From a virus (lineage: Duplodnaviria > Heunggongvirae > Uroviricota > Caudoviricetes): a stretch of DNA of 26,144 bases. Within the stretch, counting starts at the first letter, position 1. Each line of letters opens with the position of its first letter. The position numbers and the translations under genes were made by a program. The stretch spans positions 1-26,144 of the IMG/VR virus record IMGVR_UViG_3300010401_000032. The stretch is one strand, 5' to 3'. Positions 21,722-23,868 of the stretch are shown piece by piece. The notes below the pieces were generated by a model that made no database searches, had not been told where the DNA came from, and was given only the letters and a program-made list of their open reading frames with translations.

Positions 21722-21940
21722 TCAGCGAGTAGCTTCCTTGAATCCACGCTGAATCAGTTGATCCAGGGCTTGATTGATGTTGATCTCGCGGTCGGTCGCA
21801 AACTTGCGAACCATTTGCCGGGTCGAACGCGGAACGTGAGCCTGGAACGGCACCGTTTCGACATTGCCGAACGAAGACGGGCGACCGGGGCCGGCGGCGG
21901 GAGCGGACTTGACTTTGCGGGTAGCGGTAGCATTGCTCAT
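21722..21940 (-). CDS. Ribbon-helix-helix protein with GRP motif (paralog of 15012-15176)
   Basis: GRPSSF...FQAHVPRSTRQMVRKFATDREININQALDQLI; GGAG RBS. Confidence 0.78.
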   Translation of the reverse strand: MSNATATRKVKSAPAAGPGRPSSFGNVETVPFQAHVPRSTRQMVRKFATDREININQALDQLIQRGFKEATR

Positions 21941-22598: not shown

Positions 22599-22817
22599 AT
22601 GGAAACCACCGATCCTACAAAGTACCGCGTCACTTATATTTGTAAGTGTTCAGCGGATTATGCAGAAGGCTACGGGAATACTCCCGAGGAAGCCGAAGGT
22701 AAAGTAAAGGAATTCTGGAAAATCGGCGGACATAAGATTGCCGATATCGCCAGTCGAATTGTTGAGATTGCCGTTATGCATGGAAATGGCGGATCACATT
22801 ACGAGGAAGTTACTTGA
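22599..22817 (+). CDS. 72-aa hypothetical protein
   Basis: ORF track; protein-like composition; no SD. Confidence 0.65.
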   Translation: METTDPTKYRVTYICKCSADYAEGYGNTPEEAEGKVKEFWKIGGHKIADIASRIVEIAVMHGNGGSHYEEVT

Positions 22818-22841
22818 CTTCCAAGCTCAATGTGATATAGT
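22814..22841 (+). promoter_or_regulatory. Sigma-70 promoter into a non-coding region
   Basis: TTGACT-16-TATAGT, extended TG. Confidence 0.75.
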
Positions 22842-22847
22842 ATACCG

Positions 22848-23050
22848 TCCTAGCAAGAGAATCCGCGATTGGGACCTACCGTGTGGGTAGGATGGCCCCG
22901 CCCAATCCCGAGTAGCCGCCTTGAGCGGCGGGGCCGCTCCCGCCAGCCCGCATGGTCGCCCCGCCGTCACAGTAAGGCGAACTTGGATGAACCTGTGATT
23001 TTATTTTAGAAATTACAGTAAGGCGTATGCGGAGCCACCTGTAATTTGAA
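22848..23050 (+). ncRNA. Candidate ~200-nt GC-rich structured RNA with tandem 3' motif
   Basis: Nested stems 22864-22910, alternative GGCGGGG/CCCCGCC pairings, and two ACAG-TAAGGCG-N12-CCTGT stem-loops. Confidence 0.6.
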
Positions 23051-23114: not shown

Positions 23115-23154
23115 TTAAAGCAAAGAAGCCGGCGATTCTGGCAATCTGCCGGCT
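23115..23154 (-). terminator. Intrinsic terminator
   Basis: AGCCGGC...GCCGGCT hairpin followed by TCTTTGCTTT on the minus strand. Confidence 0.65.
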
Positions 23155-23169
23155 CCTCAAGTGTGGCGA

Positions 23170-23300
23170 AAGTCCAATGTTATTCTTCCGCTTCCTACCG
23201 TCAATACTCAGGCTGCGATTTTATCAACTGACCGGAATATCAACGGTCGTCAGTTGCGTTGTTCGCTCTTTCAAAGCACACTACGGCAGGCGTTCGACTG
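23170..23300 (-). ncRNA. Candidate structured RNA 3' of the HNH gene
   Basis: Multibranch fold whose G-U pairs and GAAA tetraloop form only on the minus strand. Confidence 0.45.
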
Positions 23301-23306
23301 TCGGGC

Positions 23307-23777
23307 TCATATTGGGTCAACCGAACGCCATGCTTTATAATTCACAATATCTGTAATTGTTGATTTGCCCACCCTGTAAAACTCGGCTATCGTTTTATGT
23401 TTTACTCCATTTGAAGCCATCTCACGTATTGATATAACTTTATCCCGCGAGAGTTTAGCAAACGGATTACTTTCTCCAAGATGTCTACCGTTTTTATGAC
23501 GACCTTTTCGCATCTTGTCACTTACATTATCTGCATTAGTGCCAAGAAACAAATGATCCGGTCGTACGCATGCACGATTGTCACACTTGTGGCAAACACA
23601 CATACCTTCTGGTATCGCACCAAAGTGTATAATCCATGCAATACGGTGGGCACGAACTGTTTTCTGATTGTAATAGAACTGGCCGTATCCCTTAGAATGT
23701 TTATTACCTATCCAATTCCAGCATTCGGCAGTTTTATCTACCCTTTCCCAGAATTTGTCGAGCGTAATTTGATCCAT
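23307..23777 (-). CDS. HNH (His-Me finger) homing endonuclease with C-terminal HTH
   Basis: CWNW.G....[29 protein letters not shown]; C-terminal NPFAKLS...HTH. Confidence 0.92.
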
Positions 23778-23790
23778 CAGACACGTTGAA

Positions 23791-23868
23791 TGGTGGCAGG
23801 GACGAGATTCGCACTCGTGGTCTCCTCCTTATGAGGGAGGCGTCGTAGCTAGACTGGACTACCCTGCT
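23791..23868 (-). tRNA. tRNA with CAU anticodon (Met/fMet/Ile2 unresolved), CCA encoded
   Basis: Full 78-nt cloverleaf: acceptor GCAGGG/CCCUGC, anticodon arm CCUCC-CUCAUAA-GGAGG, T arm ACGAG-UGCGAAU-CUCGU, 3' ACCA. Confidence 0.9.

Follow-up and report, generated by a model that had tools for sequence, protein, structure and literature searches.

Phage promoters with a replaced −35 element are known from T4, whose middle promoters combine a MotA box with a sigma70 −10 element, and from SPO1 (gp28), and tandem promoter clusters are known from T7 (A1–A3, and phi1.1A/B at the T7 origin). Two further systems that serve for comparison are the PR'-6S RNA of lambda with Q and the put RNAs of HK022. 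In Bacillota, SigH (Spo0H) promoters are described by RNAGGAWWW, a gap of 11–12 nt and RNNGAATWW, and in the set mapped in C. difficile 29 of 30 promoters contain AGG-N18/19-GAA, many of them with TAGAAT (PMC7438776, Table 3). Here we analyse a non-coding locus in a stretch of 26,144 nt (henceforth the window), which is positions 1 to 26,144, i.e., the first 26 kb, of a 161-kb phage record (Caudoviricetes; IMG/VR record IMGVR_UViG_3300010401_000032). The element under study is a tandem pair of similar sites in this locus, which the original prediction, made from this one sequence, had taken for repeated stem-loops acting as aptamers or protein decoys. By comparing the pair with homologous loci, we found that both sites are copies of a bipartite, 32-nt module with fixed internal spacing (AGTAAGG, henceforth block 1, followed at a set distance by a −10-like block 2), and we tentatively place first the reading that these modules may be promoter-type sites, arrayed in tandem and served by an alternative sigma factor or an activator.

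The likeness to SigH-type promoters lies in the 18-nt distance from AGG to [G/C]AAT, in the TA before and TT after GAAT, and in the hexamer TAGAAT, which occurs in about half of the modules. However, the modules' invariant AGT before AAGG and the G that follows it are outside the SigH consensus, C replaces the G of GAAT in 41% of modules (G being kept in 47%), and the modules are confined to one locus, in tandem. With the T4- and SPO1-type promoters and the T7 clusters, the modules share the combination of a normal-looking −10 element with a phage-specific box at the −35 position, and the arrangement of tandem copies at the head of a transcription unit, near an AT-rich stretch. They differ in lying inside an early transcription unit, behind a structured RNA, and in being restricted to a single locus, where the T4- and SPO1-type classes have many copies per genome. 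As in lambda PR'/Q and HK022 put, a short, structured, promoter-proximal RNA is present and −10-like elements precede terminators and a long operon, but here these elements are repeated and far from the start site, and we found no sequence similarity between the locus and the lambda PR' or HK022 put RNAs.

The bipartite module and its distribution among related phages

The module (a-Y-AGTAAGG, 15 nt, C-T-R-N-R-A-T-T-T) has the consensus a-Y-AGTAAGG-G-s-A-A-A-w-...-A-..-C-T-k-C-T-A-s-A-A-T-T-T. Its statistics were drawn from 50–53 modules at 19 loci, in all of which the gap between AGTAAGG and the invariant C is exactly 15 nt; the module-to-module period is 26–120 nt across the family, most often 44–46 nt. 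By contrast, the features that make hairpins of the two copies in the window are rare: a stem of at least 4 bp closing in the same register was found in 4 of 53 modules, UAAGGCG also in 4, and GGA at the loop position in 2, both in the window. We detected no covariation between column pairs within modules, minimum-free-energy folds varied from member to member, block 1 had an accessibility of 0.40 against a background of 0.39, and hairpins around block 2 were not enriched over shuffled flanks. Other candidate features were examined and set aside: a GAAAU/AUUUC stem was neither enriched nor stable, small open reading frames (ORFs) within modules (MNL*, MRSHL*) are at odds with the lack of a start codon in most of them, and no tRNA minihelix, anticodon-arm mimic, k-turn or loop-E motif was conserved. 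On this comparative evidence the conserved entity is a strictly spaced, linear, two-part signal and not a stem-loop, and, because sequence and promoter-like spacing are conserved and hairpins are not, the module is more likely to be a protein recognition site than an aptamer. The hairpins in the window would then be a lineage-specific by-product, or at most a local addition (e.g., a weak terminator after the first of them).

We sought relatives of the source phage via its large terminase, which yielded ten IMG/VR records at 52–62% identity. A DNA search of these records matched the GC-rich stretch preceding the modules in two of them, and both loci had the same promoter, a homologous GC-rich domain and 3 or 4 copies of (C)AGTAAGGG, with CTAGGATTTT or CTACAATTT 15 nt downstream of each. 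A search with a two-module pattern added two more IMG/VR members and 13 distinct metagenome contigs, and a relaxed search located the locus in G004, G005, G006, G007 and G008 as well, for a total of 23 loci (the window, nine related IMG/VR phages and 13 metagenome contigs). The order in the homologues is a sigma70-type promoter, a GC-rich structured RNA, 2–4 modules and a convergent tRNA-Met unit, with the convergent tRNA-Met present in every locus long enough to show the position; some members have a different 5' domain, yet one with CCCAGUA and a hairpin. The motif is thus conserved in relatives, and the objection anticipated in the original prediction, namely that it might be unique to this locus, does not apply.

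The terminase is at most 28% identical to that of any cultured phage, and the lineage is one of large uncultured phages from soil and sediment. DNA searches of GenBank phages returned nothing, or tRNA-Met alone, and no cultured member, and the module pattern had no true member among 185,579 species genomes. One repeat in Microcoleus fits the pattern (contig L136:6087-6200, intergenic, with three tandem units AGTAAGG-TGCGCAGTGCGCACC-CTACGATTAG, i.e., AGTAAGG and then a palindrome), but it has neither the RNA domain nor a tRNA nearby and is probably unrelated. The exact loop pattern of the original prediction had two matches in IMG/VR, both chance matches in coding DNA, and a two-copy TAAGGCG..GGA pattern had 30, all of them coding for Lys/Ala-rich repeats. 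An exact-protein search with the neighbouring genes recovered only identical copies of the source phage from several rhizosphere metagenomes, with no variation, while a search with the 72-aa upstream protein gave one distant homologue with no RNA beside it. A literature search for the module motif returned nothing relevant.

The hairpin pair of the window and the adjoining structured RNA

Within the window the description of two similar stem-loops was accurate. The first (H1, 22966-22999) has the stem 22966-22972/22993-22999 (GUCACAG/CUGUGAU) and the second (H2, 23010-23047) the stem 23010-23018/23039-23047 (AAAUUACAG/CUGUAAUUU), each closing a loop of 20 nt; they lie 46 nt apart, start to start, UAAGGCG opens each loop and GGA stands at an equal position in both. 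The two repeats are 76% identical. The window contains two instances of the pattern CAGTAAGGCG-N5-GGA-N4-CCTG, where 0.03 are expected, and the rest of the 161-kb genome has none. In local folding H2 is well supported (pair probability 0.82, −12.2 kcal/mol), whereas H1 is weaker (0.45, −8.1 kcal/mol) because its UAAGGCG is able to pair with an upstream CGCC as well. The covariation claimed for the stems amounts to one fully compensatory and one half-compensatory pair between the two copies; across the family no column pair was seen to covary.

The original prediction also proposed that UAAGGCG kisses the loop of an upstream hairpin, and the complementary CGCCUUG does lie at 22918-22924, where seven base pairs are possible. 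However, in relatives the CUUGA loop of the partner hairpin (P2) changes to CCCGA, CCAGA or CUAGA without compensation, UAAGG remaining unchanged, and in G005 the P2 hairpin is absent and the modules are retained. Two analogies had been drawn for the hairpins. CsrB/RsmZ sponge RNAs, like the locus here, have a short motif repeated several times within a single small RNA that follows a sigma70 promoter, but the family described here has no GGA in hairpin loops, and its motif is 32 nt long, bipartite and not presented in a loop. The GGA that defines CsrA-type loops is thus not kept in the family; block 1 reads AAGGG or AAGGC, never AAGGA, and its presentation in a loop is not conserved. The antitoxin RNAs of type III toxin–antitoxin systems (ToxI, CptI, TenpI) and phage pseudo-ToxI share with the locus a tandem arrangement of units of about 45 nt in non-coding phage DNA, but the units here are not near-identical, have a variable period and show neither an Rfam match nor a conserved pseudoknot within the unit. 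As for an adjacent toxin gene, the source phage has no ToxN_toxin match, and a convergent tRNA or HNH gene lies downstream.

Taken together, the folding of both H1 and H2 in the source phage, the UAAGGCG and GGA common to their loops and the possible pairing with 22918-22924 speak for structured aptamers or decoys (CsrA-like or pseudo-ToxI, possibly kissing the CGCCUUG hairpin). Against them stand the confinement of the stems, GGA and CG to the source phage or nearly so (4, 2 and 4 of 53 modules, respectively), the partner loop that varies or is missing, the imperfect repeats and irregular period, and the lack of a ToxN or CsrA gene in the source phage and of an Rfam match. We consider that comparison with relatives has largely refuted this explanation, which now appears highly improbable. 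What does hold is that the repeated motif is absent from Rfam and lies downstream of a promoter, beside a bona fide structured RNA: searches of Rfam 15 with the window and 12 homologous loci, at gathering and permissive thresholds, returned tRNAs only.

This structured RNA is the GC-rich domain, which we compared over eleven homologues. Two stems, P1 and P2, and a pseudoknot between the P1 loop and the strand 3' of P2 (Table 1) make up its fold. The pseudoknot is found in four complementary versions (GGCCCC/GGGGCC, GCGGCCC/GGGCCGC, GCCGCCC/GGGCGGC and GCGACUUC/GAAGUCGC), and one G-U pair (in L102) is consistent with the plus strand. As judged from this covariation, the GC-rich domain is a real structured RNA; it matches no Rfam family in any member. 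In L088 (minus strand) a tRNA-like 3' half (GGGUUCGAGUCCCGUCUCCCCGACCA, with a matching 5' acceptor strand) lies between the 5' domain and the modules.

Proposed promoter-type sites and competing explanations

We place the promoter array first because of the promoter geometry of the module, its SigH-type spacing, the overlapping modules of one locus (L118), the sigma proteins of the phage and the orientation of the arrays towards a gene block. Specifically, the two blocks have one fixed spacing in all modules, within the 16–18 bp of sigma70-family promoters, and the 16 nt between GTAAGG and the hexamer of block 2 equal the spacing of TTGACA-N16-TAGAAT in the early promoters of these phages. 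The hexamer itself is T (91%), A (84%), any base, A (62%), A (72%) and T (88%). T (82%) and G (39%) stand before it in the manner of an extended −10 element; TT follows it and then, where the start is expected, about 70% purines. Two modules of L118 overlap in such a way that the AGTAAGG of the second provides the first with a −10-like TATAGT. In every locus of sufficient length the array faces a long, co-oriented gene block past the tRNA unit. Copies also occur on their own. One in G001 lies outside the array, upstream of an early promoter, and another (L057:265-300 (+), equal to G002:132477-132512) is inverted, identical over 36 nt to module 2 of G002 and 1.1 kb from the array, beyond tRNA genes and inside a small predicted ORF. 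Among the proteins of the source phage and its relatives are two of the sigma70 family (172 and 201 aa); the first also scores just above the Pfam cut-off for Phage_antitermQ in its C-terminal part, and a weaker, third sigma candidate is found at 1241-1831 (−) of the window.

On this reading the module would be recognised at the DNA level as a promoter-type site, with AGTAAGG(G) at the −35 position and a −10-like hexamer (TAGAAT, TACAAT, TAGGAT) 16–17 bp downstream. Its reader would be RNA polymerase with an alternative sigma factor, perhaps one of the two phage sigma70-family proteins, or else host polymerase aided by an activator on the AGTAAGG box. The 2–4 modules would fire rightwards at the head of a long plus-strand gene block, from a position behind an early sigma70 promoter and the structured RNA that this promoter serves. 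That polymerase initiates at the modules, and the factor it uses, we infer from these features of the sequence.

Several observations weigh against the promoter array. A genome-wide scan with a position weight matrix finds just two copies, with scores of 24.7 and 18.2 (the next being 11.1 and 7.6), genes across the whole genome show no upstream enrichment of AGG-N18-SAAT sites, and the module cannot be a general class of middle or late promoter because it is confined to this one locus. The obvious late motif is a different one, TAGTGTAT, which has 20 copies and is probably the late promoter; it is often found just 3' of terminator hairpins and 5' of the AGGAG ribosome-binding sites of structural genes (e.g., at G000 148452, 145076, 132274 and 131968 (−), and 70825 and 74225 (+)). 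G takes the place of A-11 in 14% of modules, both copies of the window (TGTGAT, TGTAAT) among them, and this would cripple a sigma70-like −10 element. In distant relatives the C and T-A of block 2 drift (CAGGAT, CACGAT, TGGAAA), and conservation at spacer positions G7, A9, A10, A16 and C19 is unusual for promoters. Moreover, the arrays aim at the convergent tRNA unit and not straight at a gene, and the modules of an array always lie inside the transcription unit, on the same strand as the structured RNA, a placement that an RNA role fits equally well.

It is possible, if somewhat doubtful, that the modules act on RNA, as single-stranded, sequence-specific binding sites in a multi-domain non-coding RNA of the phage; to about the same degree we entertain the idea that the 5' domain, modules and 3' hairpins together form a multivalent RNA, acting as a sponge or scaffold for some factor of the phage or its host. 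Candidate targets are an RNA-binding protein or, more speculatively, the 3' end of 16S rRNA, given the Shine-Dalgarno-like AGUAAGGGG; UAAGGGG could, by inference, pair with the host anti-Shine-Dalgarno sequence, and late genes use ribosome-binding sites of the AGGAG type. A sigma70 promoter and a 5' domain whose structure covariation proves always precede the modules of an array on the same strand, in most members with no terminator in between, and a copy number of 2–4 with variable linkers resembles that of sponge RNAs. Restriction to this locus also agrees with an action on RNA, as do the purine at position 3 of block 2 (98%) and the conserved spacer, which fit protein or RNA recognition better than they fit a −10 element. 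On the other side, block 1 is no more accessible than background, no presentation is conserved and there is no known partner, the promoter-like block 2 and spacing would have to be coincidence, isolated copies (one of them inverted) are not part of the RNA, and a terminator-like hairpin with a U-run after it separates the 5' RNA domain from the modules in L081 and L085. That the whole locus represents a new class of phage regulatory RNA, with a pseudoknotted 5' domain and 2–4 unstructured, multivalent 32-nt modules, seems to us rather unlikely. Mimicry of a promoter or a Shine-Dalgarno sequence by its modules might allow such an RNA to titrate RNA polymerase, a sigma factor or the 30S subunit while the phage takes over its host.

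The modules could instead be DNA sites for another protein, i.e., an operator or iteron, part of an origin, or loading sites for antitermination, which we regard as improbable. Variants of this idea include an operator of the neighbouring Arc-like protein, a T7/T4-type origin, and loading with a sigma-dependent pause as at lambda PR'. It draws on the conserved, Arc-like DNA-binding protein encoded divergently beside the locus, on an AT-rich stretch with TTCTAGATT repeats after the modules in the window, and on the position of the locus at the switch between leftward and rightward gene blocks; in addition, the combination of short transcripts that stop at nearby terminators with a long operon beyond is reminiscent of the lambda PR'-6S RNA. 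Homologues of the Arc-like protein adjoin the locus in at least 11 members, and the best PDB matches of its model are the ribbon-helix-helix proteins Arc, AmrZ, CopG and PutA; its GRGRP motif is N-terminal and AT-hook-like. However, the commonest spacing of 44–46 bp puts successive sites off one helix face, and the modules are asymmetric, with blocks that differ, unlike ribbon-helix-helix operators. AGTAAGG is invariant between phages with terminases only 52–62% identical, which is unusual for iterons coevolving with their initiator, and, at 130–300 nt from the start site, the modules are remote by the standards of sigma-dependent pausing. Still less probable is that the hairpins are terminators or attenuators that end a short RNA. 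H1, with its 7-bp stem, is followed by a U-rich run (UUUUAUUUU), and no other terminator is evident in the plus-strand unit ahead of the convergent genes. H2 has no U-run, a 20-nt loop on a weak stem makes a poor intrinsic terminator, and the combination of GC-rich stem, short loop and U-run is absent from both hairpins (their stems being AU-rich), neither of which is called by a terminator scan. Termination would also leave unexplained why blocks and spacing are conserved in relatives without hairpins.

Layout of the locus and its significance

The source phage genome encodes 21 tRNAs, rIIA, a Ro60 gene and the large terminase; one ARAGORN tRNA (G000:42285-42361 (+)) has the anticodon CUA, i.e., is of amber suppressor type. 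The hairpins sit within a 490-nt gap between the 72-aa gene and the convergent unit, at a place where a leftward gene block switches to a rightward one. The features are collected in Table 1. From the sigma70-type promoter a transcript start is expected near 22847, and relatives have a TTGAC-type promoter at the equivalent place (e.g., TTGACTTCCACGCTCAG in G010). Downstream of this strong promoter come 110 nt with about 70% G+C, and then the hairpins; TTTTATTTT follows H1.

Table 1. Features of the locus and sigma70-family genes (positions in the window unless prefixed G000)
Feature	Position	Strand	Remarks
Sigma70-type promoter (TTGACT, 16 nt, TG-n-TATAGT)	22814..22841	+	consensus scan 10/12, extended −10
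GC-rich pseudoknotted 5' RNA domain	22857..22966	+	comparison of eleven homologues
P1	22864-22873/22901-22910	+	compensatory changes at four pairs, conserved C-C mismatch
Window-specific hairpin	22874-22891	+	
P2	22915-22919/22925-22929, loop CUUGA	+	changes at two pairs
Pseudoknot	22894-22899 with 22930-22935	+	P1 loop pairs just 3' of P2
Module 1	22971..23001	+	AGTAAGG 22971-22977, 15-nt spacer, CTGTGATTT 22993-23001; folds as H1
Module 2	23017..23047	+	AGTAAGG 23017-23023, 15-nt spacer, CTGTAATTT 23039-23047; folds as H2
Terminator hairpin of convergent unit	23124..23157	-	inverted repeat I9; T-rich tail on minus strand only
Conserved structured element X	23162..23290	.	between terminator and HNH/tRNA-Met genes
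HNH endonuclease, free-standing	23307..23777	-	Pfam HNH_3 2e-16, several PHROG HNH families
tRNA-Met (CAU)	23791..23868	-	ARAGORN, Rfam; own promoter 23903-23875
Arc-like ribbon-helix-helix protein, 72 aa, GRGRP motif	21722..21940	-	divergent from RNA locus
Sigma70-family gene	G000:71230-71748	+	
Sigma70-family gene	G000:108917-109519	-	

The convergent, minus-strand unit comprises a promoter, tRNA-Met, the HNH gene, element X and a terminator; relatives have equivalent terminator hairpins, with an A-run in front on the strand of the modules. Element X adjoins tRNA-Met in at least 12 loci, is about 120 nt long and has a closing stem that changes compensatorily; its order is GGGGGCGAU..CACCGCUUCC-hairpin-CUGUGGUUUUGU-hairpin-UUUGUCCnCUCUUU..CCCCUC. 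The HNH gene is an insertion that most relatives do not have; G002, G010 and G011 lack it at this position. Its insertion separates element X from tRNA-Met in the source phage, and in G005 an HNH gene separates the modules from element X (L126 ~372-835); these differing insertion points suggest repeated homing into the region. Between 21500 and 24500 there are 16 sigma70-like promoter matches against 3.7 in shuffles, which makes this a dense control region where leftward gene blocks give way to rightward ones.

In summary, a single non-coding locus with a structured RNA unmatched in Rfam 15, a strictly spaced array of modules and an element beside tRNA-Met has been kept across a whole phage lineage. 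It also illustrates that, where only one genome is viewed, a convincing and seemingly covarying hairpin pair can be a local accident superimposed on a linear signal that is conserved. If the modules act at the level of RNA, the locus would constitute a new kind of multivalent phage RNA. If they are promoters for a phage sigma factor or activator, as we tentatively prefer, they would mark a candidate switch point in the transcription programme of the phage and provide a defined DNA target for its orphan sigma proteins. The locus is lineage-wide and experimentally tractable.
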